The notes: a model not told the origin generated them from the letters alone. Numbered from the stretch's first letter, positions 8,916 to 46,183 are shown. The stretch is 64,000 bases of DNA from Minisyncoccia bacterium (GCA_049997875.1 JBEKRC010000001.1:108609-172608), one strand, 5' to 3'. Numbers and translations: made by a program.

Positions 8916-9434
8916 TTAAATAACCTTCGCGTAGAGAACGCCGTCTAAAAATGTTTTGCCCTTTTTACTATGTTTTCTCAGTAAACCTTCATAGATGAAT
9001 CCCGACTTCTCCAGAACTCTTATCGACGCGTTGTTGAACGGAAATGCAAATGCATAAATCCTTTTGAGGCCCAACGCGCGGAATCCGAACTTGGAGAAAA
9101 TTTTTACCGCTCGCGTCATGATGCCTTTGTTCCAATATTTTCTCGCGAGCCAGTAGCCGAGTTCGGCTTTGTGGTCTTCTATTTTATTAAACCCGAGGGA
9201 ACCGGCCACTTCGCCGTCTATGTCGATGACAAAACTGATCCTTTGTCGCTTCCTTTTTTTCGCTTCATTGAGATTCTTTTTGATCCATTGTTTTGCGTCT
9301 TCAAGGGTATAGGGATGCGGAATCAAAAGCGTCTTCCTCGCAATCATTTTGTCATTGATGTTCCGCGCCAAGGATACCTCGTCGCCCTTCCTGAACGGGC
9401 GCAGGGTAAACAATTTATCTTTGAGGATCGGCAT
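8916..9434 (-). CDS. GNAT-family N-acetyltransferase (RimJ/RimL-like)
   Basis: 172 aa with RPFRKGDEVSLARNIND...ELGYWLARKYWNKGIMTRAVK...AFAFPFNNASIRVLEKSGF, a typical GNAT acetyl-CoA binding core. Confidence 0.8.
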   Translation of the reverse strand: MPILKDKLFTLRPFRKGDEVSLARNINDKMIARKTLLIPHPYTLEDAKQWIKKNLNEAKKRKRQRISFVIDIDGEVAGSLGFNKIEDHKAELGYWLARKYWNKGIMTRAVKIFSKFGFRALGLKRIYAFAFPFNNASIRVLEKSGFIYEGLLRKHSKKGKTFLDGVLYAKVI

Positions 9435-9693
9435 GACCCAATTATATATCCGACAAGATAAAAATCGCAGGGTGCCTCAGTAGAAGCAGCGAAAGCCGTG
9501 AGGGGGCGATCGAAAATGCTGATTCCCATACCACTGGTCGCTTCACAAGGTGGCCACCCCACCGTGCTACTCACTATATGGCGGGTAATCTTATTGGATG
9601 CTAAATAACGCACTTTGGCCGCTGATCGCTCCGTTGAAGAATAGAACAATGCTATAGTAGCCACCGCCCGTGAGATTCAGGGGAACTTGCCAT

Positions 9694-9858
9694 TCATAGC
9701 TGCCAGTATTGTTGTCGCTCGTGTATATCGGAGCCGAGCCGATCTCTATGCCACAAGCGGGTATTTTTGTGCGCCTCATAATACCAAATCCCGCCGACAA
9801 TCAAAATGCCCACGACGATAAGGACGACAACAACCGGCGCAAAACCTTTTCGGTTCAT
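9694..9858 (-). CDS. Candidate small membrane protein MNRKGFAPVVVVLIVVGILIVGGIWYYEAHKNTRLWHRDRLGSDIHERQQYWQL (54 aa)
   Basis: An ATG followed by a strongly hydrophobic helix. The ORF is not in the track (<60 aa). An overlapping frame (9591-9800) continues downstream, so a frameshifted longer gene is possible. Confidence 0.3.
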   Translation of the reverse strand: MNRKGFAPVVVVLIVVGILIVGGIWYYEAHKNTRLWHRDRLGSDIHERQQYWQL

Positions 9859-10066
9859 TTATGTCAATTATATCAGATAAAGGTTTGGCCACCGTCAGGG
9901 GTATCTTGTACGCGCTCCATAAAATATGGATAAAAAATGCCGAATACCTGGGTTCTAATAACGCACGATCGGGTGCCTTGGTAGAGGACGTCAGAACTCT
10001 TTTTGAAGGAATGGCCAGCAAATGGTGAGCCCGGCAGGTTCGGTTCTACCAAGGAATCGTTGGAAT

Positions 10067-11911: not shown

Positions 11912-12021
11912 TGCTTCTAGTATAACAAAAAATCCGGTGTCTTTTCTTTTTATAGAAGGTTCAATTCCAGTTAGGGGCTATGCTCTGCAAGCCCCATAAA
12001 ATATGACTTGAAAAATCTCCG

Positions 12022-12093
12022 GGTGCCTAACCGGGATTGAACCGGTATCGTTCCGGCCACAGCGGAAAGCTTTACCATTAAGCTATAGGCACC
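12022..12093 (-). tRNA. tRNA-His (anticodon GUG) with an encoded G-1:C73 pair
   Basis: The reverse complement folds as a cloverleaf: an 8-bp acceptor stem (GGTGCCTA/TAGGCACC) consistent with the His-specific G-1, a D arm GCT/AGC, an anticodon stem TTCCG/CGGAA with loop CUGUGGC, and a T arm ACCGG-TTCAATC-CCGGT. No CCA is encoded. Confidence 0.85.
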
Positions 12094-12387
12094 ATCAACT
12101 TTCTACACTCCTCATCATAATGATGTATCAGAAAATGGCAATTATGGCAAAGCCACGCCAAATCGCTTAGATTGTTGTTCTGCTTATTTTTGTCCATGTG
12201 ATGTACGGCAAGGATCCTAAAATCTTTTGTCCCACACAACTTGCAGATCGCAGCAACGCCGCCTCGTTAAATAATATTTCGATAAGAATTTTCACCGTGA
12301 ACAAATTTTGCAATTCACATACGGCATCGGAAGGAATTTTACCAAACAATCATTAAAAAAATATAAAATTTGTTATAATTAGTAGGC

Positions 12388-13002
12388 GTGAGTACTCTTG
12401 TCGCCGATATAGGGCTTCTCGCAAGCCAAAACCTCTTTTTGGCTTATTTTATTATCTACATCGCGACGATCTTCCTTGGGAACATTTCCGCATTCGCAAG
12501 CTTCTGGATCGTCTTCCAGGGATATTTCGGCATGTGGGGCGTTCCATTCCTTATTCTCACGATTTTCCTTGCCGATGTAACCGGCGACCTCCTTTGGTAT
12601 GCCTTGGGACGCGCGACGCGCGACACGAAGTTCGGGCGCTGGATCAAGCACCGCCTGCCATCATGGCACGGGAGAGTAGAAAGGGCATTTGAACGCAACG
12701 GCAAGCGGTGGATCATTCTGTCAAAATTTTTCTATGCATCGGCGTTCCCCGTCATCTTTTCCGCAGGGTGGAGCAGGATGGAATTCAAGAAATTCTTCCA
12801 CAATTCGGTGCTCTCCGTCGTGATCTGGCTTCCCATCCTCCTCGGCCTTTCCTACGGCCTCATCTCCGGCCTCGCGCCGCTCCGCGCCGTCGCCATATTC
12901 CGCAACTTTGAACTCGCCTTCTTCATCGGCCTTGTTCTCTTCCTTCTCTTGGATTATTTCATCGCGAAGTTCATCGAGAAGGCGTTCCGCAGGGAGGATT
13001 GA
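12388..13002 (+). CDS. DedA/VTT (SNARE-associated) family membrane protein
   Basis: 204 aa with multiple TM helices and a DedA-like topology and motifs (GDLLWYALGR...WIILSKFF). A TATAAT -10 element lies just upstream (about 12376-12381). Confidence 0.65.
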   Translation: MSTLVADIGLLASQNLFLAYFIIYIATIFLGNISAFASFWIVFQGYFGMWGVPFLILTIFLADVTGDLLWYALGRATRDTKFGRWIKHRLPSWHGRVERAFERNGKRWIILSKFFYASAFPVIFSAGWSRMEFKKFFHNSVLSVVIWLPILLGLSYGLISGLAPLRAVAIFRNFELAFFIGLVLFLLLDYFIAKFIEKAFRRED

Positions 13003-13035
13003 TTCCCACGGCCCTTTCTTTTATAATTTTCACGC

Positions 13036-14865
13036 ATGTCCAATCTCACCAAAAACATCCTCTGGGCGATCCTCACGCTCGTCGTGATCGCACTACTCTT
13101 CTCGCTGTTTGCTGGTTCGGGAACATCGCCGCAAACTTTGAGTTTGAACCAACTCGTGGACAAGATCAACGCAGGGCAGGTCACGAAGGTCATCGTGAAC
13201 GGCAACGACCTTACGGTAACACTTAAAGACGGCAGCACCGCTGCCTCCAAGAAGGAAAGCGAATCCGGCATCTCGGAGACCCTGAAGAATCTTGGCGTTG
13301 CCCCGCAGGCGCTCCAAAACGTTGACCTTGAAGTGCAGGATCAGTCGGGCTGGCAGTTCTGGGCGGGTATTCTGATCCCCACCCTCCTGCCGCTGCTCGC
13401 CATCGGCTTTATTTTCTGGCTCATGTTCCGGCAGGCGCGTACGGGCGTGAATCAAGCGTTCAACTTCGGACGCTCCAACCTTCGTCTTTCCACCTTCAAA
13501 GACAAAGTCATGTTCAAAAATGTCGCGGGGCTCAAGGAGGCGAAAGAGGAACTTATTGAGGTGGTTGATTTCTTAAAAAATCCTAAAAAGTTTCTTGACT
13601 TGGGCGCGCGGATCCCCCGCGGCATATTGCTCATGGGGCTGCCGGGAACCGGAAAGACATTGGTGGCGCGTGCCGTCGCGGGCGAGAGCGGCGTGCCGTT
13701 TTTTTACATTTCCGCATCGGAATTCGTGGAGATGTTCGTGGGCGTGGGCGCCTCGCGCACCCGCGATGCCTTTATGACGGCCAAACGGGCGGCTCCCGCG
13801 ATTCTCTTTATTGATGAAATCGACGCGGTCGGCCGCCAGCGCGGTGCGGGCCTCGGCGGCGGCAACGACGAGCGGGAGCAGACGCTCAATCAAATTCTTG
13901 TTGAGATGGACGGGTTTGACCGCGATACGCGCGTGATCGTCCTTGCCGCCACGAACCGGCCGGACATTTTGGATCCGGCGCTCCTCCGTCCCGGCCGTTT
14001 TGACCGCCGCGTTATCCTCGATCTCCCCGATCTCAATGACCGCGAGGCGATCCTCAAGATCCACTCGGAAGGAAAAGTATTGGACAAGAACATTGACCTC
14101 CGCAAGGTCGCCATCCGCACGCCCGGCTTCTCCGGCGCGGACCTTGCGAACCTCATGAACGAGTCCGCGATTATAGCCGCGCGCACCAATAAAAAAGCTA
14201 TCGGACAGAACGATCTCTTTGAAGCAGGGGAAAAGGTAATCCTTGGCCCCGAACGGAGAAGCCGCGTGATCTCGCAAAAAGAAAAGGAGATCACTGCCTA
14301 CCATGAAGGTGGCCACGCGCTCGTCGCGGCCGCGATGAAGAACGCCGACCCGGTGCAAAAGGTTTCCATCATCAGCCGCGGATTTGCGGGCGGCTACACG
14401 ATGAAGCTCCCCATCGAGGACCAACACTTGAAGACGCGCAGCCAATTCCTTGCCGATCTCGCCATGATGATGGGCGGATACGCGTCGGAGAAGCTTACGT
14501 TCGGCGACGTCTCCACGGGCGCCTCCAATGACCTTAAAGAGGCCTCCGATCTCGCGCGGCGGCTCGTCACAAAATACGGCATGAGCGAGCTCGGACCCAT
14601 GACGTTCGGTAAAGCCGAAGAGCTCATCTTCCTTGGCCGCGAAATCGCCACCGAAAAAAATTATTCCGAAAAGGTGGCGGCCGAAATTGACGCGCAGGTG
14701 CACGGCTTCATCTCTCATGCATACGCAACGGCGGAGAAAATCCTCAAGGCACACAAGCCTGCGCTCAAAAAGATCGCGGATACGCTTATGCAAAAGGAAA
14801 CGCTGGAACAGGACGAATTCTATAACCTTTTGAAGCCATTCAAGATCAAGCCGATCAGTGCATAA
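13036..14865 (+). CDS. ftsH: ATP-dependent zinc metalloprotease FtsH
   Basis: An N-terminal TM helix, the AAA+ Walker [18 protein letters not shown], a second-region of homology, and the HEGGHAL zinc-binding motif; 609 aa. Confidence 0.95.
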
Positions 14866-15182: not shown

Positions 15183-15710
15183 TTAAAACTCCACCGTGAA
15201 CTTCGCGCGCTCGCCCTTCGCGAACGGGTGCTTTATTTCCTTCATCTCGGTCGCGAGGTCGGCGGCATCAATGAATTCTTTGGGAGCGCCGCGCCCGCTC
15301 AATATCAAAATTTTGTCTTCCGGAAAATCTTTTATTGCCGCGAGCACTTCTCCCGCCGCAAGAAGCCCGAGCGATGCCGCGACGTTCACCTCGTCCAGCG
15401 CGATAAGATGCCACCTGCCGGATTGTTTTTCTTCAATGAAAGTGTTGAGTGCGTTCCGCGCCGCCTCCTTGTGCTTTTCAATCGGCAGCTTGTCACCAGA
15501 GATCCCCACGAACCCCAGCCCCATTTTCCGTATTTCAAATTTCTCCTTCGGGATGCCGAGCAGCTTTGTAAATTCATCCTCGCCCGAAATCCACGGCCCC
15601 TTGATGAACTGGATCATAAGCGCCGGTTTCCCGCGCCCCGCGACGCGCACCATCTGGCCAAGCGACGCCGTCGTTTTCCCTTTCCCGTCCCCCGTGAAAA
15701 CGATGATCAT
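15183..15710 (-). CDS. cobO: Cob(I)alamin/corrinoid adenosyltransferase (CobO/CobA/BtuR family)
   Basis: MIIVFTGDGKGKTTASLG P-loop and a conserved FIKG motif; 175 aa. Confidence 0.75.
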   Translation of the reverse strand: MIIVFTGDGKGKTTASLGQMVRVAGRGKPALMIQFIKGPWISGEDEFTKLLGIPKEKFEIRKMGLGFVGISGDKLPIEKHKEAARNALNTFIEEKQSGRWHLIALDEVNVAASLGLLAAGEVLAAIKDFPEDKILILSGRGAPKEFIDAADLATEMKEIKHPFAKGERAKFTVEF

Positions 15711-15711
15711 G

Positions 15712-15783
15712 TGGGCATACCAGGATTCGAACCTGGAACCGGACGTGTATAAGACGTCTGCTCTGCCGTTGAGCTATATGCCC
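15712..15783 (-). tRNA. tRNA with anticodon UAU (formally tRNA-Ile reading AUA)
   Basis: The reverse complement GGGCATATAGCTCAACGGCAGAGCAGACGTCTTATACACGTCCGGTTCCAGGTTCGAATCCTGGTATGCCCA folds cleanly. It has a 7-bp acceptor stem, a D arm GCTC/GAGC, an anticodon stem GACGT/ACGTC with the 7-nt loop C-U-U-A-U-A-C (U33 present), and a T arm CCAGG-TTCGAAT-CCTGG. Confidence 0.7.
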
Positions 15784-16376
15784 TACTTCCCTACTATAGT
15801 ATCAAACCGATCCATCGCTTGCCCCGCCTGCGCGTTGAAATTATTGATCGCGTTCACGTCGGTGTTGATCTGGTTCACAAGCGCCTGCACCTCGACATTC
15901 GTGCCGCCTCTGCCCGTAAACCGATCCTGCAATATCTGGAGCAACCGGCCAAGATCGCCGCTGTAATTGATGAGTTGATTGATGAGCGCGAGGCGATTAG
16001 AGATTGACTCCAGCGCCGCCTGCCGCGCGTTGAAGTCGGAGATGTCGGAGAGTGCCTTCGTCATTTCCTCAATCTGCCCCGAAAGCTCCACCGCCTGGTC
16101 GCGGATCTCCTGACTTTGGGTAACAAGTCCCGTCGTAAGCGTGAGCGCGTTCGCATAGTCCTGTTTTTCGTCCATCGTGTTCACTTGTTCAAGGGTCGCG
16201 GTGGACTGGTTGGAAAGGTTCACGATGTTCTGCGCAATGATGGCGCCCTGTGTCCGCGCATTGACGAAATTCTGCGGTACGGCGCCGCTCCCCTGCACAA
16301 ACCTCGCGACGGCATACCCGATCGCCACGATGGCAACAAAACCTAAAACGATCTTGGTCTTGCGGGAGCTCCACAT
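15783..16376 (-). CDS. Hypothetical membrane-anchored coiled-coil protein
   Basis: An N-terminal TM helix (IVLGFVAIVAIGYAV) is followed by a Gln/Asn/Ala-rich region with heptad-like periodicity. The start was taken at the internal Met (MWSSRK). Confidence 0.5.
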   Translation of the reverse strand: MWSSRKTKIVLGFVAIVAIGYAVARFVQGSGAVPQNFVNARTQGAIIAQNIVNLSNQSTATLEQVNTMDEKQDYANALTLTTGLVTQSQEIRDQAVELSGQIEEMTKALSDISDFNARQAALESISNRLALINQLINYSGDLGRLLQILQDRFTGRGGTNVEVQALVNQINTDVNAINNFNAQAGQAMDRFDTIVGK

Positions 16377-16504: not shown

Positions 16505-16575
16505 GCGGGTATCGTATAATGGCATTACCTCAGCTTTCCAAGCTGATGACAGGGGTTCGATTCCCCTTACCCGCT
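16505..16575 (+). tRNA. tRNA-Gly (anticodon UCC)
   Basis: Acceptor stem GCGGGTA/TACCCGC, anticodon stem TCAGC/GCTGA with loop UUUCCAA, T arm AGGGG-TTCGATT-CCCCT, and discriminator U (typical for Gly). No CCA is encoded. Confidence 0.85.
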
Positions 16576-16789
16576 CAATTTCAAGGGCTATGCGGTGGAA
16601 AGATTTTTGAGCAAGATAGATTTTATCGAGTTTGTTTTTATCCGGGCGCATTCCACTTATGGTGACAGGGCAAGGGGATGACGATGGAAAGTATTATTTG
16701 AGTTACCCCCATCGTCCAGTCGCCGGAGTGATCCATTCATGGAAACGCCGGATTTGACGTTAAGGTTTAGTCCCTGCTAAATTGAACTT

Positions 16790-33368: not shown

Positions 33369-35552
33369 ATGAACATCAAGAAGTTGATCACTTCTTTTCT
33401 TATCCTAGCTGCGCTTGCCGCTTCGTCGGCGCTGCTCCTGTCAAACGAAAATTGGTTCTCCTCTTCTCGCAGTCCCGCGGCGCAGGTCTCGTTAGGTAAC
33501 GACGAAAGCGCGCCGCCGATCGCGAGCAATAATGCCTTTCTACCAACGACCCCGCAAGGTGCGGGCATCACGCAAGACGAAAACGACGATTCCGCCGCCG
33601 TAGACGACCCCAACAATCTCACCGGCGTGGTCGTCAATTCTTTCATGAACAACATTCTTGCCTCAAACCCTTCGGGACCGCAGCAAAACGCCAATGGCGA
33701 TGACACGCTCACCTTCAACCCCAACGAGGACCAGATGACGGGCGCGCTTGCCCAGAGCGCCACGCTTCAGCACTTATACATCCCGAATTGGGATCTTGAC
33801 GCGCTTGAACAAAAACTCAATATCGCGACCACCTCTTCCCCCGATGATATCGCGAACTACAGCGATGCCCTCAACGGCATTTTTAATAAAAATTTCGTGA
33901 GTTCCGGCGTTCTTACCATTGCGAACGGGGATAACGCCGATATAGGCAGCGCTCCTCTCATGGCATCCTCAACCGACGCCGCCCTCGCGGCCACTGCCCA
34001 GCTTCGAACGCCCGCGAATCTCGTGGACTTCCAAAAAAGTCTGGTAAAGGTACTTGTGTATCAGAAAAACGCCCTCGCTCTTATTGAAGGCACAAGTGGC
34101 GACCCCGTCAGGGCATCGCTCATCTTCCAAGCCCAGGAACCGAGGTACAACGCCGCCCTGCAGGATTTTGAGAATGAACTGCAAAAGGCGCAATCCAGTG
34201 GAACATTTTCGTTCGGTAATGTTCCCGCGCGCAGCGGCACCGGATGGTCCGCCGCGGTTCTGGGCCTCATTGGGATACGAACCGCGTATGCCCAATGGCC
34301 GACGTTTGACTTTAGTGTTTTCGCGAACCAAATAGAGCAGTTCATTAAAACCATCCTTCTTCAGATCGTGAAGAACTCTCTGATCAGCTTCATTCAGCAT
34401 AAAATAGTAAGTTGGATATCCAATCCCAAAAATCCAAAGTTCATCCAGCAGTGGGGAGGGGAGTTATCAAACGCGTTCGTGGCAGCGGCCAACAGTACGC
34501 TTTCACAAATAAGCCCGAACCTTTCCCCGTCGTTCGGACCCTTAGTAGGCTCTGCGCTTAAACCCCAAAAGAGTGCGGTATCCGGCATCCAATCAACTTT
34601 AGATAACGACTTAGCGAACCTCGGGACAAACCAACAAAATTTCTACAACAACTTCAGCCAGGGAGGCTTTGATGCATATTTTGACCTTTTTAAACCGGAC
34701 AACAACTTCTTCACTGCATTTATGGATACGCAGGATGCCATGCTTGCCGCCGGCGGCAAGTCGGCGCAAACCGCACAAACGAAGGCGGTTGCCGGCCAAG
34801 CCAGCCGCGGCAACCAACTTTGCAGCGACGGTAGCAATCCTTACGCAACCCACATGGGTTGCGACGAAGGATCTCTCGCAACCACCACCTACGGCAATGA
34901 GTGTATGTCCATCGGCGGCACCCCGCTCGGCCCCCCGGACAAAGTTAACAACGGGGGACTTTGCGCCAACGGTGACGATCCTACCGTCACGTCCCCGGAC
35001 CAAGTAACAAAGGCGATTCAAAGCGCAGGCCTCAAAAGTCCCATTGACCTTATCGTGAACGGCGACGACGTTACAGGACTCGTGATCGCGATGACAGAAT
35101 CGGTTCTGACGAACCTTGTGAACCAAGGCCTCAATGCTGTGGAAACTGGCCTTTCCGGCGCACAGAACCCGTCGCCCGCGACCGTCGCCGCAGATAACGC
35201 AGCGGTGAACGGCACCGTAGCCAGCAGCACGCCGCCGGCACAACCCGTCACCTGCATGCCGAAATCGCAATCGGCCACGATCGCGCTCGGAAGCAGCAAT
35301 CAGGCCTATGTTACGTTCGAGGTCACCGGCGGCGTCATGACGGCAACCAGCACAAACCCAACGTATACCTGGACCGCAAACTGGCCAGTTGGAGGAGCGT
35401 GGGGAGTGTGGGGAAGCACGGGGACGGGAACCGGAAGCACCTTCTCGGTGACTTTCACCGCGAATACCGCGGGGACGTACAACTATACCGCTACCGTGAC
35501 CGCTTCGCCGGGCGGCAGCGACTTCTGCCAGGTCCAAATTACGGCATACTAG
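33369..35552 (+). CDS. Large secreted or membrane-anchored hypothetical protein (727 aa); first gene of the T4SS-like operon
   Basis: An N-terminal signal/TM segment (ITSFLILAALAASSALLL), a long Asn/Gln/Ser-rich body, several Cys pairs, and a C-terminal Thr/Gly-rich beta-rich region. No family recognised. Confidence 0.6.
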   Translation: MNIKKLITSFLILAALAASSALLLSNENWFSSSRSPAAQVSLGNDESAPPIASNNAFLPTTPQGAGITQDENDDSAAVDDPNNLTGVVVNSFMNNILASNPSGPQQNANGDDTLTFNPNEDQMTGALAQSATLQHLYIPNWDLDALEQKLNIATTSSPDDIANYSDALNGIFNKNFVSSGVLTIANGDNADIGSAPLMASSTDAALAATAQLRTPANLVDFQKSLVKVLVYQKNALALIEGTSGDPVRASLIFQAQEPRYNAALQDFENELQKAQSSGTFSFGNVPARSGTGWSAAVLGLIGIRTAYAQWPTFDFSVFANQIEQFIKTILLQIVKNSLISFIQHKIVSWISNPKNPKFIQQWGGELSNAFVAAANSTLSQISPNLSPSFGPLVGSALKPQKSAVSGIQSTLDNDLANLGTNQQNFYNNFSQGGFDAYFDLFKPDNNFFTAFMDTQDAMLAAGGKSAQTAQTKAVAGQASRGNQLCSDGSNPYATHMGCDEGSLATTTYGNECMSIGGTPLGPPDKVNNGGLCANGDDPTVTSPDQVTKAIQSAGLKSPIDLIVNGDDVTGLVIAMTESVLTNLVNQGLNAVETGLSGAQNPSPATVAADNAAVNGTVASSTPPAQPVTCMPKSQSATIALGSSNQAYVTFEVTGGVMTATSTNPTYTWTANWPVGGAWGVWGSTGTGTGSTFSVTFTANTAGTYNYTATVTASPGGSDFCQVQITAY

Positions 35553-35555
35553 CGC

Positions 35556-38183
35556 ATGAAAAAGGAAACCTCTGTGCGGAAAAACTTGCTAAGAATTGTC
35601 GCTGTCTCGTCCCTATTGATCCTTTTTGCATCCCTCGTGCCGATCCATCTCGCGCGCGCCAATTGGCTCACGGAAGGCCTCGGTCAAATCATAGACTTCA
35701 CCTACACGGTCATTGGGAAGATTGTTTTTATAATTGGCTTCTTGTTTGCCTTCATTGTTGGCATAGTCATAGCCATTGAGGCATGGATTGTCGGAGTCAT
35801 CCTCAACATGAACAATGGCGTCTTTGATGCGGCGGTGGTACAAACCGGCTTCCAGGTCAGTCTCTCTATCGCCAACATGGGGTTCGTGCTGGGAATCATC
35901 ATCATCGCAATCGCGACCATATTAAAAAGGGAAACCTACGGCATAAAGCAACTGCTGTGGAAACTGGTGGTCGCGGCAATCCTCGTGAACTTCAGCTTAG
36001 TCATCATGGCCCCCATTTTTGGATTCGCTAACAACCTCACGTTATATTTCCTAAACTGCGTTAACCCGGGCGGAGGAGGGTGTGGCGGGAATGGAAGCGC
36101 CCTTACGAGTGATGCTGATTTCGCAAAGGCAATCGCAGGCGCATTCAACCCCCAAAAGAGCTTCTTGTCCCTCAACACCCTTAACGCTACTTCAAGTACG
36201 CAAGTCCAGCCCGGGCCGGCCGTTACGGGCTTCTTTGGGACTGTTGGAGGAGATATCAGCAAAATTCTCGTTCCCATCTTCTCGGTCCTCTTCATAGCAG
36301 CCACGCTTGTGGTAATGGCTATTGTGCTCGCCGTTTTTGCATTCATGCTACTTGTTCGTTATGTGTATATCGCGATACTCGCGGTACTTGCGCCGTTCGC
36401 ATGGCTCATGTGGGTTTTCCCCAAAACAAAGCATCTTTGGGACCAGTGGTGGGACACCTTTATTAAATGGACTATGTTCGCGCCCATTGTCGTTTTCTTC
36501 ATGTATCTCGCGGTGGCAACGGCGACCCAGATGAGTTCCGGGAATACCACCGGCACCCAAACTTTCGCGGTCTATACCGCCGCTAACAGCAACACGCTTT
36601 GGGCAACAATTTCCCAATTCTTTGGCAATCTGCTTACCCCCATCATCCAAAACGCCCTAAATGAATTCGTCCTTGTCGGTCTCATGGTTGGCGGCATGAT
36701 CGCGGCGGAGAAGATGAGCATCATGGGCGCGAGCGCCGCGGTAGGTGCGGCGAAGTCGGTGGGCAACGCCGCGAAGGGCTACGTAGGAAAACAAACCAAG
36801 AAGGGTGCGCGGTATACATACCAGCATGCTAGAATCCCATTCACCCAGGTTACTGGCACAAGAGTAAGCGAAGCGTTGCAAAGAAGCAGAATCCCACTCG
36901 TTTCGGCAGCCGGAAGAAAGGTGGCAGGTCTTACGGAAGCAGGAGGGAAAGATCTCGTGGCTAAGGCCGCAAAAGATCTTGATGTGGACGGCATGAGTAA
37001 AGAAAAATTGGTTCGGGCGACAGAAGGAGCGAGAGGAAATGACAACACGCTCGCGCTCATTCAGCGAGCTCAGAAGGAAGGGTGGCTGGGTTCGCTTAGA
37101 AGGGTGGGCGGAGAAAAGGACCTCAGCACCTGGATGCAAAAGAATCAGCAAACCTTTAAGGACTACGATCACGGGAAGCTTCAGGGCGATGTTAACGATT
37201 CTCTTATGTCGAACGAGATCATGAGGAAGATTGCCGCAGCGCAGGGGAAGGCTGAGGGCACCGCGCGAGTGGCCGATACACAGGGAATTCTAGGAACGGC
37301 AGGGGCCGACGTCTCCGCGCGAACATTGCAAGAGACCAGCAATACCTTAGAAAAGGATATAGCAACGGCCAAGGGAAATGCACAGGCTTCTGCCCAGATT
37401 ACCGACGCCCACGGAATTTTGGGAACCATGAATGCCACGGTATCAGCCCAAGAATTGAAAAAGGCGAGCGAGGCTTTCCTGGAAGACATTGGGAAGGTAA
37501 ATCTTAATGCTCTCGACGACAGGGATATAATCAACTTCAGGGGACTGCATATGAGCGTTGCCGGCCTTAAACAGGAAAAGAAGGATGCGCAGGCCGATAT
37601 AGTTATGGCAGATTTGGCGATGGATGGCGCCGCAAGAACCGGGACGATGAACTTCCAAGGAAATAACGTCGCAATAGCAGACGTTGAAAGGAAGGTGGCT
37701 GATGCAAAAACGGCCGCAAACGATGCAATGCGTCATGCCGCAGACACTACAACGGTTGATGGGATGGCGGGCACAGCTGGAGACCTTATGCGCAGAGAAG
37801 CGGAAAAATTCTTCGCTGGTAAAGATAGAGCCAATTTCGCAAGGGCGCATCCCGAGGACATCTTTGGTGGGGTGCCCAAATTCGGCCTTTCCGAGCAGGC
37901 GATTGGCGCCCTGAGCCAGGCGGTTGCGCACGGTATCGCCATAAAAAATCCGCAGCTGACGCCCTCCGTGGTGAGTAAGCTTGACAACAAAGAAGCCCTT
38001 GACCGTTTCGACAACCGCTATAGAGCTGCCATTAATAGTGCCCCAATAAGCCAAGCCGACAAAGATATTTTGCTCAGGCGCCACGAACAGACTATGATTA
38101 GGCGCTACTATGTAGATGTCGGCGGTGGAGGCGGAACGAGCTCTACGCCCGCACCTGCCCCAGGTCCCTCGGGAACACCCTAG
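35556..38183 (+). CDS. VirB6/TrbL-like polytopic membrane protein with a C-terminal hydrophilic repeat-containing extension of about 500 aa
   Basis: The N-terminal 380 aa or so contain about 8 hydrophobic helices, with an architecture like VirB6/TrbL. The C-terminal half is Ala/Gly/Lys/Asp-rich and carries internal 40-aa repeats (...DTQGILGTAGADVSARTLQE... / ...DAHGILGTMNATVSAQELKK...). The call rests on topology and operon context; no diagnostic motif was seen. Confidence 0.5.
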   Translation: MKKETSVRKNLLRIVAVSSLLILFASLVPIHLARANWLTEGLGQIIDFTYTVIGKIVFIIGFLFAFIVGIVIAIEAWIVGVILNMNNGVFDAAVVQTGFQVSLSIANMGFVLGIIIIAIATILKRETYGIKQLLWKLVVAAILVNFSLVIMAPIFGFANNLTLYFLNCVNPGGGGCGGNGSALTSDADFAKAIAGAFNPQKSFLSLNTLNATSSTQVQPGPAVTGFFGTVGGDISKILVPIFSVLFIAATLVVMAIVLAVFAFMLLVRYVYIAILAVLAPFAWLMWVFPKTKHLWDQWWDTFIKWTMFAPIVVFFMYLAVATATQMSSGNTTGTQTFAVYTAANSNTLWATISQFFGNLLTPIIQNALNEFVLVGLMVGGMIAAEKMSIMGASAAVGAAKSVGNAAKGYVGKQTKKGARYTYQHARIPFTQVTGTRVSEALQRSRIPLVSAAGRKVAGLTEAGGKDLVAKAAKDLDVDGMSKEKLVRATEGARGNDNTLALIQRAQKEGWLGSLRRVGGEKDLSTWMQKNQQTFKDYDHGKLQGDVNDSLMSNEIMRKIAAAQGKAEGTARVADTQGILGTAGADVSARTLQETSNTLEKDIATAKGNAQASAQITDAHGILGTMNATVSAQELKKASEAFLEDIGKVNLNALDDRDIINFRGLHMSVAGLKQEKKDAQADIVMADLAMDGAARTGTMNFQGNNVAIADVERKVADAKTAANDAMRHAADTTTVDGMAGTAGDLMRREAEKFFAGKDRANFARAHPEDIFGGVPKFGLSEQAIGALSQAVAHGIAIKNPQLTPSVVSKLDNKEALDRFDNRYRAAINSAPISQADKDILLRRHEQTMIRRYYVDVGGGGGTSSTPAPAPGPSGTP

Positions 38184-38204
38184 CCAGTTCCCTCCACAGA
38201 AACC

Positions 38205-39389
38205 ATGATTACTATCACAACACAACAGGCACGGAACCGATGGGATTATCTTACTGAAGCCCTCCGCTTCGCTCTATTTTCCGATGTGAACGCTGACTTC
38301 ATTATGAAAACCTGCGAGCAGGAACATCTCCCCTTAGAGAAAGGACTGGACGTCCTTGCGATTTCTGGCTATGTGCTTCTTGGTTTCCTTCATCCGGAAG
38401 ACCTCGCCGGCGAACTAAAAGATGAATTGAATCTGGACATCAAGATCTGCACCCCTATCGCGGCCGCGATAAACTCAAGGGTTTTTTCACCTTTGAGGCA
38501 AGACATAGACAAAGTTTACGAACCCCTAAGTAAGTTGGCTGCAGGTCCGAAAATAATCCGAGATGTCGGTCCCGTACCCATGGCGGCGAAACCAGCAGCG
38601 CCCATTGCGCCCGCGCCAAAGGCGGAACCTGTGCCCACACCAAAAATGTCCGACGTAGGATGGTCGCAAGCGATGCCGAAACAGCCGGCGGTGAAATTGG
38701 GCCAAGCCGCAACGCCGCCGCCAGTGGTGCCAAGAGCACCAGCGGCGCCCGCGCCTCTCACCCCAACTACAATACCACCTACGCGGGGACCCATTGGTGA
38801 GTTTGAGCGACTCGCAGTGAAGCGCAGCGAGGGAATTGTGCCTCCTGCTCCACTTTCCGGTACTCCGAAGCCATCTGTTCCGCCCATCCCGCCTGCGCCA
38901 TCACGGCCCGCAACTCCTGTCGCGCCACCTCCGGGACCCGCGCCGTTGATCCTCCATGAAGACACATCAGCCAAGCCGCAACAGCGGGCGCCGGATTTCC
39001 ATTTTGATCTTCCCTCGGAAAAATTTACTGCGCAAAAGGGGTCCGCGTCGTTACCGATAAGGCCAGCAGTGGTTGAATTCGGCAAGGTGCCTCCGCCGCC
39101 CGCACCAAAAACGGTCGTCTCAACGCCGCGCGTTGTCCACTACACGGAATACAAATCTCCTTCGCCAGAAAATCCCACGCCTTCAGGTCCCGCAGCGCAA
39201 AGAAAAATAACCGAGCTTACCGCAACGCCATCGACGCAACCATCAACCTCGTTAAAGACGCCGGTGCTGCCCACGCCGTTGAAGGCGCTTCCCTCCGAAC
39301 CGACTGCGCCGGAGCTCCCCATGCCGCCGAAATTTCCGACCACGCCAACTCCGCCGGTACCACCGCCTCCACCATCAAAAAATAATTGA
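38205..39389 (+). CDS. Proline-rich hypothetical protein (394 aa)
   Basis: An N-terminal region of about 100 aa is followed by an extended Pro/Ala/Thr-rich low-complexity region (PAAPAPLTPTTIPPT...PPVPPPPPSKNN). No signal peptide is evident. Confidence 0.5.
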   Translation: MITITTQQARNRWDYLTEALRFALFSDVNADFIMKTCEQEHLPLEKGLDVLAISGYVLLGFLHPEDLAGELKDELNLDIKICTPIAAAINSRVFSPLRQDIDKVYEPLSKLAAGPKIIRDVGPVPMAAKPAAPIAPAPKAEPVPTPKMSDVGWSQAMPKQPAVKLGQAATPPPVVPRAPAAPAPLTPTTIPPTRGPIGEFERLAVKRSEGIVPPAPLSGTPKPSVPPIPPAPSRPATPVAPPPGPAPLILHEDTSAKPQQRAPDFHFDLPSEKFTAQKGSASLPIRPAVVEFGKVPPPPAPKTVVSTPRVVHYTEYKSPSPENPTPSGPAAQRKITELTATPSTQPSTSLKTPVLPTPLKALPSEPTAPELPMPPKFPTTPTPPVPPPPPSKNN

Positions 39390-39479
39390 CGGGATGGCGG
39401 ACGGCGGACAAAAACGGACGAAGGAATCCTCCGGTTCCTGCCGGGGCTTTGGCGGCAAACTTGGGCTATAATATAGTGA

Positions 39480-40010
39480 ATGCAATTCCAGGTCCCGCAA
39501 TTTATAGATACGGAGGATAAGATCGTGGGGCCCTTGTCGCTCCGGCAATTCATTTACATCGGCATCGGCGCGGGCATCTCCGCCTTGCTTTATTTCATAC
39601 TCCAGACGTGGCTGTGGGCTATTCTTTCATTCTTCCTTGTGGGCGGCGCCATTGCGATCTCATTCGTAAAAATTGAAGGGAGGCCGCTTCCCAAAATCAT
39701 CCTCTCGGCATTCTCCTTCTATTGGAACCCGCAAACGTACGTGTGGCAGCCGGAACATCCGGCGGTCCAAAAGCATAAGACGCCCCCGGAAGCGAAGCCG
39801 ATCAAAAGCAGCGTTCTTGAGAAGATCGCCATGGGCATGGCGCTCCACAAGAGCTGGGAAAAGGTCCAGGTGGGGGTAAAACCGAAGGCAAAGGAGCCCC
39901 AGAAGAAGCCCCAGAAGAAGCTCAAAGAACAAAAAGTGAGCGGCCATTACGAGATCTTCCGAAAGCTCGCCGGCGACCGCGAAGCGGCGCGGAGAGTGGA
40001 CTACCGCTGA
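39480..40010 (+). CDS. PrgI/VirB3-like small membrane protein
   Basis: MQFQVPQFIDTEDKIVGPLSLRQFIYIGIGAGISALLYFIL plus a second TM helix fits the two-helix PrgI/VirB3-like architecture. It sits immediately upstream of the VirB4 homologue. Assignment is by architecture and position. Confidence 0.5.
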   Translation: MQFQVPQFIDTEDKIVGPLSLRQFIYIGIGAGISALLYFILQTWLWAILSFFLVGGAIAISFVKIEGRPLPKIILSAFSFYWNPQTYVWQPEHPAVQKHKTPPEAKPIKSSVLEKIAMGMALHKSWEKVQVGVKPKAKEPQKKPQKKLKEQKVSGHYEIFRKLAGDREAARRVDYR

Positions 40011-40032
40011 TAATGATGAGAAAATACAAACG

Positions 40033-40710
40033 ATGGCGTCAAAACAGGATCTTGGCAATTCCCTTGACCTTGTAAGCATCAAGGAGATCAGGAACAACAC
40101 GGCCATTCTTAAGGACGGCAGTATGCGGCAGGTCGTCCTTGTGGGCGGCGTGAACTTCGCGCTCAAATCGGAATCGGAACAAAATCTCCTCACGGGAGGG
40201 TACCAAAATTTTTTGAATGGCATTGAGTTCCCGCTGCAGATCGTGGTGCACTCGCGGAAGGTGAATATTGACAAATACGTGCAAGGGCTCCTCGCGCGGA
40301 AAGAGGCGGAACAAACCGCGCTGCTCCGGAGCCAGATTGACGAATACGTTGAATTCATAAAGGGATTTGTGGAAAAGAACGCGATTATGGAAAAGACGTT
40401 TCTTGTGGTCGTTCCTTTTTATCCACTGAGCATTGTGTCAACAAAAAAAGCCGTGGGCTTTCTCCCGTTCTTTAAAAAGAAACAGGACAAGGAGACGGAA
40501 ACAAAGGACGCAGCCGAGACCGAGCGCATCTTCCAGGAAAATCTGGCGCAGCTCATCCAGCGCACGAGCCAGATCACAACCGGGCTTCTCGGCATGGGGC
40601 TTGAGGCAACCGTCTTGAACGACGAAGCGCTCGCGGAACTTTTCTACAACTTCTACAATCCGCAGACCATTGAACGAAAGGATATGGCCCTGCCGAAAGA
40701 AGAAAAATGA
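40033..40710 (+). CDS. VirB4-family N-terminal domain (5' part of a split or frameshifted VirB4 gene)
   Basis: The 225-aa product ends 4 nt into the next ORF (ATGA overlap, different frame). The downstream ORF lacks roughly 200 aa N-terminal to its Walker A compared with full-length VirB4/TrbE proteins of about 800 aa. Confidence 0.45.
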   Translation: MASKQDLGNSLDLVSIKEIRNNTAILKDGSMRQVVLVGGVNFALKSESEQNLLTGGYQNFLNGIEFPLQIVVHSRKVNIDKYVQGLLARKEAEQTALLRSQIDEYVEFIKGFVEKNAIMEKTFLVVVPFYPLSIVSTKKAVGFLPFFKKKQDKETETKDAAETERIFQENLAQLIQRTSQITTGLLGMGLEATVLNDEALAELFYNFYNPQTIERKDMALPKEEK

Positions 40711-42446
40711 ACAATATGCCCGAGAATCACAATCAACTCAAAGATATAAAACAAATCATCGCGCCAGCGGGAGCGCAGGTGTTCCCCAACTACCTCAAAA
40801 TCGGCGACAAGGTTGCGAAGACCTTTTTTATACTTTCTTACCCCCGCTACCTTGCGACTGGCTGGTTTGAGCCGCTTATCAACCTCCCCAACCTTTTTGA
40901 CGTTTCCATTTTTGTAAATCCGATTGATACGGGCACGGCGCTCAAAAATCTCCGCAAGAAGGCCGGCCAGCTGGAGTCGCAGCTGAATGACGAGGAGGAC
41001 AAGGGTCTCGTGCGCAATCCGATGCTGGAGACCGCCATCAAAGACGTGGAGGGGTTGCGCGATTCCCTCCAGGAATCGCAGGAGAAACTTTTTGACACCG
41101 GCGTCTACATCACGATCTACGCGGACACCCAGGACGACCTCGTGCGGTTGGAGAGCAAGCTCGTGAGCATGATGGAAGCGAAGCTCATTTATCTGAAACC
41201 GGCGCTTTTTGAACAGCTGGAAGGGCTTTTCTCGGTCCTTCCGCTCAACGAGGACAAATTGCAGATATATACGCCGATGAACACAAGCCCGATTTCCTCT
41301 TTTTTCCCGTTCGTTTCGGAGGACCTCTCCTCAAATCAGGGAATTATGTACGGCATTAATTTGCACAACAGCAACCTCGTGATCTTTGACCGCTTTTCGC
41401 TGGAGAACGCGAACCAAGTGGTGTTCGCAAAATCCGGCTCCGGCAAGTCGTACACTACAAAACTGGAGATCATCCGCTCGCTCATGGCGGGCGTGGACAT
41501 GGTGATCGTGATTGACCCGGAGAACGAATATCAGCGACTCGCCGAAACCTTCGGCGGCAGCATGTTCAACATCTCGCTTTCGGCGCACGAGCACATCAAC
41601 CCGTTTGACCTCCCGCTCGTCCCCGAGGGTGAAACGCCGTCCGACGTCCTCCGGTCGCACATTGTGACGCTCGCGAGTTTGATCAAGCTTATGTTGGGGA
41701 AAATCACCCCCGAAGAGGACGCTATCCTTGACCGCGCGATCACGGAAACCTACGCCTCGCGCGAAATCGTCGTTGGATTGGATTTCGCGGGAAAAGAACC
41801 GCCACTTCTGGGAGACCTCGCCACCGTTCTTCGCAACCTTGAGGGGGGCAGGGGCATGTCGGAGAAACTCTACAAATACACCGAAGGAAGCTTCGCGGGG
41901 CTCCTGAACCAGCCGACCAACATTGACGTCAATAACCGCCTCATCGTCTTCTCCATCCGCGACCTTGAGGAAGAGCTGCGTCCCATCGGGATGTTCGTCG
42001 TCCTCAACTTCATCTGGAGCCTGATCCGCGCGAAACTCGCAAAGCGGCTGCTCTTCATTGACGAGGCGTGGATCATGATGAAGAATGACGACTCGGCCAC
42101 GTTCCTTTTCGGCCTCGTGAAACGCGCACGGAAATATTTTCTCGGCGTTTCCACGATCACGCAGGACGTGGAGGACTTCCTGCGCTCTCCCTACGGGCGT
42201 CCCATCATCACGAATTCATCTCTGCAAATGCTTTTGAAGCAGGCACCGGCGACGATTGACATCGTGGCGAAAGCGTTCGACCTTACGGATGCGGAAAAGA
42301 ACTTCCTTTTGAGCGCGGAGGTGGGTACCGGAATCTTCTTTGCCGGCAAGCGCCATGTCGCGATCCAGATCGTGCCGTCTTATTTTGAAGACCAGATTAT
42401 CACCACGAATCCGGAGCAGCTATTGGAGGAGAAAAAAGACCTGTAA
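40707..42446 (+). CDS. VirB4/TrbE/CagE-family type IV secretion ATPase (C-terminal ATPase part)
   Basis: Walker A VVFAKSGSGKSYTTK, Walker B RLLFIDEAWIMM, and flanking VirB4-like conserved blocks (NSNLVIFDRF; HINPFDL; GVSTITQDVEDF). Confidence 0.8.
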   Translation: MNNMPENHNQLKDIKQIIAPAGAQVFPNYLKIGDKVAKTFFILSYPRYLATGWFEPLINLPNLFDVSIFVNPIDTGTALKNLRKKAGQLESQLNDEEDKGLVRNPMLETAIKDVEGLRDSLQESQEKLFDTGVYITIYADTQDDLVRLESKLVSMMEAKLIYLKPALFEQLEGLFSVLPLNEDKLQIYTPMNTSPISSFFPFVSEDLSSNQGIMYGINLHNSNLVIFDRFSLENANQVVFAKSGSGKSYTTKLEIIRSLMAGVDMVIVIDPENEYQRLAETFGGSMFNISLSAHEHINPFDLPLVPEGETPSDVLRSHIVTLASLIKLMLGKITPEEDAILDRAITETYASREIVVGLDFAGKEPPLLGDLATVLRNLEGGRGMSEKLYKYTEGSFAGLLNQPTNIDVNNRLIVFSIRDLEEELRPIGMFVVLNFIWSLIRAKLAKRLLFIDEAWIMMKNDDSATFLFGLVKRARKYFLGVSTITQDVEDFLRSPYGRPIITNSSLQMLLKQAPATIDIVAKAFDLTDAEKNFLLSAEVGTGIFFAGKRHVAIQIVPSYFEDQIITTNPEQLLEEKKDL

Positions 42447-43318
42447 TGGCCGAGGCGGCGACACAACCAAAATCAGAATCTGCGCCTCCCGCGGGCGGAG
42501 GTGCGGCGCGATCCCAGCCGAAAATCACGCTTACCGAGGGACTTCTCATCGGAGGCGGTCTTACTGTGGTGTGTGTCATCAATCTCATACCGATTGCTGG
42601 TGACATAACGGCGCCCGTCGCCGGCGGATTGATGTTTTTTTACCTTTATATGAAAGGATTAAGGGGAACTAATGTCGTCGCTACCAATATAGTCGGTTAT
42701 GCCGCCGGGATGTTCCCGATTGTCCAGGCACTTCCAACCCCACTCGTTGCCTGGGTTGTCGTGATAATTATTGACCGGATGCCCGTGGTTGAAAAAATCG
42801 CCGAGAAGGCAGAAGTGGTAACGGGAGGAGGCGAGGCGGGTGCCCTCGGCGGAGCCGCAGCGGAGGGTGCGGCAGTAGAAGGTGCAGCGGTTGAGGGAGC
42901 GGCCGCGGGAGGGGCGGCGGGAGCTACCGCCGCTGCAGAAGGAGTGCCAGCCGGAGCCGCAGGTGGCGCGCCCTCGGCGCAAACTGGCATCTCCGAAGGC
43001 GGTGCCACAGGACCACCGCCCGGCACGGAAGGACCCACGACGCCGGAAGCGGGAGGCCCCTCGCCGATAGCCGGCGAAGAAATGCCCCCGGGAGAAGCAG
43101 GAGCAACAGAAGAAGGGGCCGGCAAAGAAGCGGAAGCGGAAAAAGAATATCGAGAAATCGAGGCGGCGGCGGCACCTGCAATGGTCCCACCGGTGGAAGC
43201 GGCTATAAAGGAAGAATTCCCATCGGAGGCGGCGGGGATCCAGGCCCTTACTGAAAAGGCGAAGGAAACACAAGCAACTGAGGATAAGGCAGAGGACGAA
43301 GAAGAACCTGCGAGCTAG
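42446..43318 (+). CDS. Membrane protein with an Ala/Gly/Glu-rich low-complexity C-terminal half
   Basis: 2-3 N-terminal hydrophobic helices, then GGGEAGALGGAAAEGAAVEGAAVEGAAAGGAAGATAAAEG... and an acidic tail. Its start codon overlaps the VirB4 stop. Confidence 0.5.
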   Translation: MAEAATQPKSESAPPAGGGAARSQPKITLTEGLLIGGGLTVVCVINLIPIAGDITAPVAGGLMFFYLYMKGLRGTNVVATNIVGYAAGMFPIVQALPTPLVAWVVVIIIDRMPVVEKIAEKAEVVTGGGEAGALGGAAAEGAAVEGAAVEGAAAGGAAGATAAAEGVPAGAAGGAPSAQTGISEGGATGPPPGTEGPTTPEAGGPSPIAGEEMPPGEAGATEEGAGKEAEAEKEYREIEAAAAPAMVPPVEAAIKEEFPSEAAGIQALTEKAKETQATEDKAEDEEEPAS

Positions 43319-43346
43319 GTCGCATGCCGCGTGTGATACAATATAA

Positions 43347-45653: not shown

Positions 45654-45658
45654 GACTG

Positions 45659-46093: not shown

Positions 46094-46134
46094 TTCAAGG
46101 TACTATTCCATACTCCCGCGCCGAAATCAAGCCT

Positions 46135-46183
46135 GACCAGCACCACTTTTGCGTTTGCAGAAAATGCAAAAGTGGTGCTGGTC
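46135..46183. terminator. 18-bp perfect inverted repeat (GACCAGCACCACTTTTGC ... GCAAAAGTGGTGCTGGTC) between yidC and jag
   Basis: Exact reverse-complement arms with a 13-nt loop, in the intergenic spacer of the yidC-jag operon. Confidence 0.4.

Follow-up and report, generated by a model that had tools for sequence, protein, structure and literature searches.

How do bacteria keep the isoleucine codon AUA apart from the methionine codon AUG? Among the problems of the genetic code this separation is a classic; the bacterial textbook answer to it is lysidine, with TilS regarded as essential and nearly universal. Another answer is found in the eukaryotic cytoplasm, where tRNA-Ile(UAU) has pseudouridines at positions 34 and 36 and its UAU anticodon reads AUA. 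Eukaryotic genes for this tRNA have an intron that is reportedly needed for the modification (PMC11912914). For bacteria, TilS was present in 98.18% of the 1,093 genomes of one survey, and k2C was described as “evolutionarily stable across bacteria” (Diwan and Agashe, 2018). Bacterial tRNA-Ile genes in which the UAU anticodon is encoded have been described as well. In Mycoplasma mobile, UAU is encoded and TilS is absent, and it was shown experimentally that U34 is unmodified, that IleRS carries Arg865, at the site of W905 in E. coli, and that AUG is rejected by the ribosome (PMC3575796). Bifidobacterium and Neorickettsia also have a tRNA-Ile with the TAT anticodon and no tilS, and the adaptation there was attributed to an IleRS of the eukaryote type (PMC3575796). 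In Lactobacillus casei and L. plantarum, Cyanothece PCC 7424 and Ferrimonas balearica, tilS and tRNA-Ile(UAU) occur together (PMC3575796). The same anticodon has been obtained in a suppressor of a tilS deletion in Bacillus subtilis, in which a change of G34 to U in tRNA-Ile1 sustains AUA decoding without lysidine (Kohrer et al., 2014; PMC3919564).

As for the distribution of such genes, the record of 2013 comprised nine species without tilS, from three clades, together with a few that have both systems and 371 unassigned metagenomic TAT tDNAs (PMC3575796), and tRNA-Ile(UAU) was reported in nineteen species of tRNADB-CE in 2014. A preprint on IleRS of 2026 continues to refer to “rare cases”, with M. 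mobile as the only one cited. It has also been proposed by Taniguchi that UAU decoding preceded lysidine and goes back to LUCA (PMC3575796). No CPR bacterium is named in the survey of Diwan and Agashe (2018) under “candidate”, Saccharibacteria or Parcubacteria, and our full-text search, with subscription-only papers and supplements outside its reach, found no literature linking CPR to tRNA-Ile(UAU) or to the loss of tilS. The gene type is already known in bacteria, and it is its phylogenetic scale that is under-appreciated.

Here, we examine a tRNA gene on a stretch of 64,000 nt (the window), which is chromosomal DNA of an ultra-small member of the CPR/Patescibacteria (“Minisyncoccia bacterium”, formerly Parcubacteria). 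Our main reading, to which we assign a probability of about 0.8, is that the gene would encode a functional minor tRNA-Ile, whose encoded UAU anticodon reads AUA and which replaces tRNA-Ile2(CAU) together with TilS. The features under discussion are listed in Table 1.

Table 1. Location of the tRNA-Ile(UAU) gene and its neighbours in the window.
Feature	Position	Strand	Evidence and remarks
tRNA-Ile(UAU) gene, 72 nt	15712-15783	minus	ARAGORN (15711-15783, anticodon tat) and Rfam RF00005
Anticodon loop C32-U33-U34-A35-U36-A37-C38	15747-15753	minus	Sequence and Rfam structural alignment
197-aa ORF upstream of the tRNA, without a Pfam family	15783-16376	minus	L001 gene call (9335-9928), transferred to window coordinates
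cobO/btuR-type corrinoid adenosyltransferase	15183-15710	minus	Pfam PF02572, 1.2e-47
ftsH	13036-14865	plus	Pfam M41, AAA and FtsH_ext; convergent with the tRNA, 847 nt apart
tRNA-Gly(UCC)	16505-16576	plus	ARAGORN and Rfam

In a search of the window, Rfam RF00005 matched the gene over the full model, from 15783 to 15712, with 70.8 bits (gathering score 29, E = 1.8e-13), and all the stem pairs in the alignment are standard. The RNA reads GGGCAUAUAGCUCAACGGCAGAGCAGACGUCUUAUACACGUCCGGUUCCAGGUUCGAAUCCUGGUAUGCCCA, in which U34, A35 and U36 correspond to positions 15751, 15750 and 15749, respectively. The variable loop has 5 nt and CCA is not encoded. When folded alone, the RNA reaches −27.3 kcal/mol, with a z-score of −4.2 relative to 200 shuffles. 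The first-pass annotation of the window had described a canonical cloverleaf with the loop C-U-U-A-U-A-C and the anticodon UAU; its coordinates and its loop are exact. It had also named another fold, another anticodon or an intron as grounds on which this reading could fall, and ARAGORN gives the anticodon tat without an intron. Unlike the intron-containing eukaryotic tRNA-Ile(UAU) genes, the window gene has no intron, and its body is of the bacterial Ile2 type. Note that the strand had been left unstated; the gene lies on the minus strand.

The canonical tRNA-Ile2(CAU)/lysidine system requires C34, whereas T34 is present at this position in the window. The same 72 nt, T34 included, recur with 100% identity in nine independent assemblies (ENA, JGI and Logan), and therefore an error of sequencing or assembly at position 34 is ruled out.

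At first sight, the surroundings of the gene look like those of a phage, because three tRNAs stand isolated within 5 kb and not all on one strand. The tRNA is moreover wedged between two open reading frames without a spacer: the last G of the TAG stop codon of the 197-aa ORF is position 1 of the tRNA, and the ATG of the cobO-type gene begins 1 nt past A73. Could the gene then be a pseudogene, the passenger of a phage or another mobile element, or an artefact at position 34? A megablast search with 16 kb found no similarity to deposited phages, and the genes around the tRNA are core chromosomal ones according to Pfam and PHROGs, namely ftsH, tyrS (TyrRS), the H+-pyrophosphatase gene, nusA, dnaA-dnaN, the gene of a class A PBP, pilB, ruvB and pyrG. 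The high Rfam score and the identity of the tRNA in nine assemblies also speak against such an origin, as do the compensatory covariation across 15 genomes with FtsH proteins only 55–84% identical and the synteny with ftsH that is conserved across CPR, both of which are described below. Consequently, a phage or mobile origin is ruled out, and the whole set of explanations, whose probability we put close to nil, is already refuted.

Part of the local arrangement recurs in other genomes. Homologues of the 197-aa ORF adjoin the UAU tRNA in the loci L056 and L083, and the pairing with tRNA-Gly(UCC), at a distance of about 0.7–1.2 kb from tRNA-Ile(UAU), is conserved in the same two loci. The exact cobO-type protein is present on 17 contigs, and a tRNA-Arg(CCG) gene is found in the flanks of the window. 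A promoter and terminator scan around the tRNA gave three promoter-like sites where 1.6 were expected and no terminators, and is therefore uninformative.

To which family does this tRNA belong? A species-level genome collection was scanned with a pattern that keeps the D-arm and the T-loop of the window tRNA, leaves the stems free and allows Y at position 34. Among the matches listed there are 119 tRNAs, of which 14 have the anticodon UAU and 105 have CAU. All of the 14 listed UAU matches come from CPR, whereas 104 of the 105 listed CAU matches come from other bacteria (Fisher p = 2.5e-17); that all UAU genes are from CPR holds only for this body type, with its D-arm and T-loop fixed by the pattern. 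The listed UAU matches comprise Levyibacteriota (a closed chromosome), Daviesbacteria, Azam-, Niyogi- and Portnoybacteria, Parcubacteria/Paceibacterota, “Saccharibacteria” and the “Patescibacteria group”, together with one MAG that has no label and shares 84% identity with the window in FtsH. The listed CAU matches belong to Chloroflexota, Sphingomonadales, Myxococcota, Peptococcaceae and others. Labels aside, the UAU genomes form a deeply diverged set, because their FtsH proteins are 55–84% identical to one another, compared with 46–50% identity to that of E. coli.

In an alignment of 15 UAU tRNAs (the window and the 14 listed), 99.7% of the cells are paired and 15 of 21 pairs show compensatory changes, a level reached in 0 of 500 shuffles; the D-stem, positions 32–37 and the T-loop are fixed by the pattern and hence uninformative for covariation and for the comparison. 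The gene is a genuine bacterial tRNA-Ile(UAU), both conserved and covarying.

Several positions outside the fixed ones distinguish the two sets. Among the matches listed, all UAU tRNAs (15/15) have C at position 38, which is not fixed by the pattern, and all CAU tRNAs (105/105) have A there. The pair U31-A39 is present in 14/15 of the listed UAU tRNAs and in 0/105 of the listed CAU tRNAs, which have G31-C39 or A31-U39 instead. C5 occurs in 0/15 against 89/105 of the same listed sets, and the pair 5-68 is A-U in the window tRNA and G-C in 13/15 members of the UAU family among the matches listed. The E. coli TilS reportedly uses the acceptor pairs C4-G69 and C5-G68; the window tRNA has the former, while A5-U68 takes the place of the latter.

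The rest of the body is shared. The UAU and CAU sets have in common C4-G69, A73, mostly C29-G41, G45-G46-U47-U48 and a 7-nt D-loop AACGGYA, and the window tRNA is up to 85% identical to a tRNA-Ile2(CAU), that of an Anaerolineae member of the Chloroflexota (L076). It therefore resembles the Chloroflexota tRNA-Ile2(CAU) genes that are accompanied by TilS (L046, L062, L076 and L084) in its body and in its job, AUA as isoleucine, but differs from them in having U34 instead of C34, C38 instead of A38, U31-A39, and A5-U68 instead of C5-G68. On the simplest reading of these sequences, the CPR gene would be an orthologue of tRNA-Ile2 in which C34 has changed to U. This also sets it apart from the B. 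subtilis suppressor, a laboratory mutant of the major tRNA-Ile1(GAU), whereas the window gene appears to be a natural and conserved derivative of the Ile2 lineage.

When metagenome contigs were scanned with a pattern that leaves the D-loop free, at least 121 UAU tRNAs were found, of which, among the matches listed, 68 have C at position 38, 39 have A and 14 have U. These figures rule out that C38 marks bacterial UAU tRNAs universally, and therefore several UAU families exist in the environment. The first-pass annotation had called an encoded UAU rare and restricted to a few reduced genomes. This remains valid for cultivated bacteria only and does not apply to CPR, in view of the 14 of 14 listed UAU matches and the at least 121 metagenomic tRNAs.

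In E. coli, the identity set of tRNA-Ile consists of A73, C4-G69, U12-A23, C29-G41, A35, U36, A37 and A38. The window tRNA has all of them except A38, which is replaced by C38 here and in 15/15 members of the UAU family among the matches listed. Since A38 is not defining for UAU systems, the difference would mean an altered recognition of the loop by IleRS and not that the tRNA falls outside the isoleucine family; C38 being outside the E. coli identity set, charging by IleRS is what we infer.

If the tRNA were not an isoleucine tRNA, AUA would have been reassigned, for example to methionine as in many mitochondria, or another synthetase would charge the tRNA. The departure from the E. coli IleRS element A38 could be taken in this sense, and altered genetic codes are known in some CPR clades (PMC8629427). 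However, the codons themselves argue otherwise. AUA is used 138 times in 26 Pfam-validated genes, that is, 12.1 per 1000 codons and 16.7% of the isoleucine codons, in a window with 53% G+C. When eight conserved genes are aligned with their E. coli orthologues, 31 AUA positions face I, V or L in 61% and M in 6%; in the same alignments, M is faced by AUU/AUC in 6% and by AUG in 23%. Moreover, of 67 positions with AUA in related CPR orthologues, 32 face AUC or AUU of the window and only one faces AUG. Thus the codon-usage check that had been suggested for AUA found the codon frequent and isoleucine-like in two alignment tests. In addition, MetRS needs C34, and the remaining isoleucine identity elements are present in the window tRNA. 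A screen of 250,000 genomes with Codetta found sense reassignments of arginine codons only, and none of AUA (PMC8629427). Because the two codon tests agree and Codetta gives no AUA reassignment, it is well supported by sequence comparison that AUA means isoleucine in this lineage, and a reading other than isoleucine is strongly disfavoured, to the point of being extremely improbable.

Is the lysidine route then absent? About 84 kb of the species was available, made up of the window and two flanks of a genome of about 0.9 Mb. Pfam, phmmer with the E. coli TilS, the SGGxDS motif and a TilS profile found no tilS gene and no PP-loop protein in it; the Pfam scan covered 30 large ORFs of the window and its flanks, to which two 10-kb contig extensions were added. 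The TilS profile, built from Chloroflexota and E. coli TilS proteins, had no match in 140 kb of species sequence (about 84 kb non-redundant), in 91 kb of CPR loci or in 740 kb of metagenome UAU loci. The eight tRNAs in the 84 kb include none with a CAU anticodon, and no tRNA-Ile2-type body with CAU occurs in reliably CPR genomes among the matches listed. In the same 84 kb, no IleRS gene (ileS) was found by Pfam or by phmmer with the E. coli IleS. Three IleRS candidates from the 740 kb of metagenome UAU loci proved to be ValRS and LeuRS.

The profile does find TilS near CAU genes. Among the matches listed, it identified six TilS genes in CAU loci, whereas the 135 UAU loci gave no match (6/105 vs. 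0/135; one-sided hypergeometric p of about 0.006). Only one listed CAU contig, L037, is labelled “Patescibacteria”, and it has tilS beside the tRNA. In body type, its tRNA agrees with the tRNAs of Chloroflexia L057 and Armatimonadota L096, from each of which it differs by 2 nt, and because of this body type the contig would be either misbinned or a TilS-retaining exception. Whichever it is, TilS is associated with CAU and not with UAU.

The protein families compiled by Meheust et al. (2019) for 2321 CPR and 1198 non-CPR bacterial genomes (Supplementary Data 1; PMC6744442) provide figures for the whole lineage, counted as genomes with a given family. TilS (K04075/PF01171) is found in 123/2321 CPR vs. 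866/1198 non-CPR genomes, MnmG in 5/2321 vs. 897/1198, TruA in 5/2321 vs. 958/1198 and TadA-like proteins in 158/2321 vs. 873/1198, compared with 1495/2321 vs. 948/1198 for MnmA and 1942/2321 vs. 995/1198 for TsaD (PMC6744442). It should be noted that detection in this dataset is imperfect, as TilS is recovered in 72% of non-CPR bacteria against 98% in Diwan and Agashe (2018). The TilS family is flagged there as “depleted” in CPR, without discussion in the text of the paper (PMC6744442). As a group, CPR is largely without TilS and MnmG. The TilS counts uphold the core of what had been proposed from the sequence at first, namely an encoded tRNA-Ile(UAU) that reads AUA and bypasses the CAU/lysidine route.

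A TilS-family protein is nevertheless present in about 5% of CPR genomes (PMC6744442). The UAU tRNA might accordingly be an auxiliary reader of AUA in a genome that keeps tilS and tRNA-Ile2(CAU), all the more as less than 10% of the genome was inspected (about 84 kb of 0.9 Mb) and both systems coexist in Lactobacillus casei, Cyanothece and Ferrimonas (PMC3575796). We consider such redundancy improbable. The UAU tRNA itself has the body of tRNA-Ile2 (the AACGGYA D-loop, G45-G46-U47-U48, C4-G69 and A73), and this suggests a replacement and not an additional gene. No CAU tRNA with this body is found in the reliably CPR matches listed, and in the CAU contig L037 the tRNA has the L057/L096 body type and tilS beside it. 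No TilS lies near the 135 listed UAU loci, and AUA usage is high in the genes of the window. In L. casei and the like, UAU is proposed to be redundant with lysidine, whereas the lineage-level data for CPR argue for the absence of TilS.

No tilS lies near the window tRNA, unlike the situation in Chloroflexota CAU loci: a TilS gene (PF01171, PF09179 and PF11734) is located 240–320 nt upstream of tRNA-Ile2(CAU) in three of these and 1.9 kb upstream in a fourth. The UAU tRNA is instead linked to ftsH: among the matches listed, the two genes adjoin each other in 8 of the other 14 CPR genome loci, and ftsH is present in 25 of the 56 listed metagenome UAU loci of at least 5 kb. In some CPR loci, the tRNA begins 4–10 nt past the ftsH stop codon, and the gene upstream of ftsH in UAU loci is rpsA, not tilS or hpt. 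Among the 89 CAU loci listed for this comparison, ftsH is near the tRNA in a single one, where the tRNA lies upstream and not downstream of ftsH. The order tilS-tRNA-lipB-lipA-ftsH is seen in one CAU locus. Descent of the ftsH linkage from an ancestral tilS-tRNA-ftsH cluster is a weak possibility; its inheritance in unchanged form was rejected, given that only 1/89 of the listed CAU loci has ftsH, with the tRNA on the other side.

For the mechanism of decoding, that of M. mobile appears, by analogy, to be the best-supported one for the tRNA-Ile(UAU) of CPR. In both cases an encoded UAU tRNA-Ile would read AUA in a lineage depleted of TilS, with A37 available for t6A and a reduced genome; Bifidobacterium and Neorickettsia share with the window the bacterial tRNA-Ile gene with the TAT anticodon. 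M. mobile is a single species of Tenericutes, whereas the gene type of the window recurs across deeply diverged CPR lineages. In M. mobile, the state of U34, the role of IleRS and the rejection of AUG are experimental results, which would carry over to the window by analogy.

Applied to the window, the scheme would run as follows. The tRNA would be excised from a transcript that carries the 197-aa ORF, the tRNA and cobO, and CCA would be added post-transcriptionally. A37 would be converted to t6A, as TsaD occurs in nearly all CPR. U34 would lack an xm5 group, since MnmG is absent from CPR, and would probably be unmodified as in M. mobile. In a genome presumably without tilS and without tRNA-Ile2(CAU), this U34 would pair with the A of AUA, and the IleRS of the lineage would be adapted to U34 and C38. 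The departure from the A38 that E. coli IleRS uses may mean a changed interaction between IleRS and the loop or a tuning of the discrimination between AUA and AUG. The ribosome and the competition with tRNA-Met would limit misreading of AUG, possibly together with the conserved C32/C38 and U31-A39 signature of the anticodon arm.

It had been claimed in the first-pass annotation that a UAU anticodon needs a special modification of U34 to avoid misreading of AUG. This is contradicted by M. mobile, where U34 is unmodified and the ribosome is credited with the discrimination (PMC3575796), and by the presence of MnmG in only 5/2321 CPR genomes. An alternative is that the tRNA has the same role but carries a modified U34, through 2-thiolation by MnmA, a pseudouridine or another modification of CPR, so that fidelity would come from the tRNA and not from the ribosome. 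MnmA is kept in most CPR (1495/2321; PMC6744442), pseudouridines are found in eukaryotic tRNA-Ile(UAU) (PMC8007984), and an unmodified UAU anticodon binds both AUA and AUG when it is placed on ribosomes of E. coli (PMC3575796). The invariant C38 and U31-A39 could then be recognition elements for a modification enzyme. To our knowledge, however, all known substrates of MnmA have U35, whereas the window tRNA has A35. In addition, our analysis identified no candidate U34-modifying enzyme, MnmG is absent from CPR, and U34 is unmodified in the only bacterial tRNA-Ile(UAU) that has been analysed chemically (PMC3575796). A modified U34 is a serious but unlikely alternative, and we keep to an M. mobile-like mechanism as the preferred one.

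The gene also fits a broader tendency. CPR lack tRNA-Arg(ACG), as was noted by the authors of Codetta (PMC8629427). In view of this missing tRNA, the family counts given above and the tRNA-Arg(CCG) in the flanks of the window, decoding in CPR appears to rely on additional tRNA genes and on only a few enzymes that act on wobble bases, and a UAU tRNA fits in with such a strategy. The UAU state appears normal across much of CPR. We lean slightly towards the more general proposal that much of CPR has replaced tRNA-Ile2(CAU) and TilS by tRNA-Ile(UAU), the sampled family being marked by C32/C38 and U31-A39, the loss of C5-G68 and the linkage to ftsH, and that MnmG, TadA and TruA were lost alongside.

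If this is true, CPR would be by far the largest bacterial group that decodes AUA without lysidine, which would contradict the description of k2C and TilS as “evolutionarily stable across bacteria” (Diwan and Agashe, 2018) and would probably explain many of the 371 metagenomic tDNA-Ile(TAT) of 2013. The “universal” status of TilS, and its standing as an antibacterial target, would need to be qualified. In the annotation of genomes, a tRNA(TAT) in the absence of TilS would be the normal state of CPR and not a sign of an incomplete MAG. The question raised by M. mobile, how a tRNA with U34 avoids AUG, would gain many natural replicates with C38 and U31-A39 as positions that can be mutated, and cultivable Saccharibacteria could be used for such tests if they carry the same gene family. 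Finally, the UAU state in CPR may be derived, or it may be ancestral as in the proposal of Taniguchi for LUCA, and the idea that UAU came before lysidine would become testable phylogenetically.

In CPR bacteria, the 3' side of ftsH is a habitual site of tRNA-Ile(UAU). Among the matches listed, linkage to ftsH was found for 9 of the 15 UAU genome loci, including the window, for 25 of the 56 metagenome UAU loci of at least 5 kb, and for 1 of the 89 CAU loci. According to Lin (2014), as cited in PMC11947777, the 5' side of ftsH is occupied by tilS-hprT in B. subtilis-type genomes, and ftsH is regulated by the TilS-HprT complex. In Chloroflexota, the gene for the substrate tRNA-Ile2(CAU) is located directly downstream of true tilS, so that the genes for the enzyme and its substrate are neighbours.

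Coordinates of ftsH, tilS and tRNA features in the window, its flanks and related contig loci
Feature	Locus	Positions
ftsH with tRNA-Ile(UAU)	window	13036-14865 with 15712-15783
ftsH-UAU tRNA linkage, other genome loci	L030, L050, L053, L056, L064, L074, L087, L107	
ftsH-UAU tRNA linkage, metagenome loci	36 among L142-L261	
tilS by tRNA-Ile2(CAU)	L046	1556-3325
tilS by tRNA-Ile2(CAU)	L062	1307-3142
tilS-tRNA-lipB-lipA-ftsH order	L076	1976-7537
tilS by tRNA-Ile2(CAU)	L084	3509-6955
tilS by tRNA-Ile2(CAU)	L057	3-671
tilS by tRNA-Ile2(CAU)	L037	1-711
Flank tRNAs Arg(CCG), Arg(UCU), Phe(GAA), Pro(UGG), Val(UAC)	L138; L140	18869-18941; 4650-5426

Among the matches listed, a CAU Ile2-type tRNA occurs on just one contig labelled 'Patescibacteria', L037 (DATLAB010000026.1), and upstream of this tRNA lies a TilS fragment. 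The tRNA shares its body type with those of the Chloroflexia locus L057 and the Armatimonadota locus L096, differing from each by 2 nt, and the contig is either misbinned or from a rare CPR genome that retains TilS. The 'Candidatus Saccharibacteria' labels of three further loci (L074, L053 and L083) look doubtful: FtsH of L074 is 71% identical to that of the Minisyncoccia window, FtsH of L053 is 71% identical to that of the Portnoybacteria locus L064, and L083 has the synteny of hyp197 (the 197-aa ORF upstream of the tRNA), TyrRS and tRNA-Gly in common with the window.

On the minus strand of the window (15183-16376), the tRNA is set between two ORFs with zero spacers. Its G1 (15783) is also the last G of the TAG of the upstream ORF, and the ATG of cobO (15710) is 1 nt past the discriminator base A73 (15712). 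Once the tRNA 3' end is processed, cobO would be almost leaderless. At several other CPR loci, such as L047, L050, L030 and L122, 1-10 nt separate the UAU tRNA from the flanking ORFs. The metagenome contig L193 carries a tandem pair of tRNA(UAU) genes (1022-1075 and 1169-1222), both with U38 and with different acceptor stems. On the Patescibacteria contig L090 (4699-6398), a CCA-adding enzyme gene (PolyA_pol, HD and tRNA_NucTran2_2 domains) is located 62 nt downstream of tRNA-Ile(UAU).

Elsewhere in the window, a block of large ORFs (727, 875, 394 and 426 aa) without Pfam matches (33369-46915) encloses a TraG/VirD4-like ATPase (40707-42446). The block adjoins the dnaA-dnaN origin region (47507-50080) and probably encodes an apparatus for type IV secretion or of a competence-like kind. 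About 1.2 kb past the right window end, the flank L138 of this species contains a diversity-generating retroelement core (12182-13567), in which an RVT_1 reverse transcriptase is accompanied by the accessory protein bAvd; a hypothetical gene and ruvA flank the core.

As for the other tRNAs, G-1 (12093) of the window tRNA-His(GUG) (12021-12093, minus strand) is genomically encoded and faces C73, as is usual in bacteria, and the flank tRNA-Arg(CCG) is in keeping with the TadA-poor CPR decoding scheme of Shulgina & Eddy.
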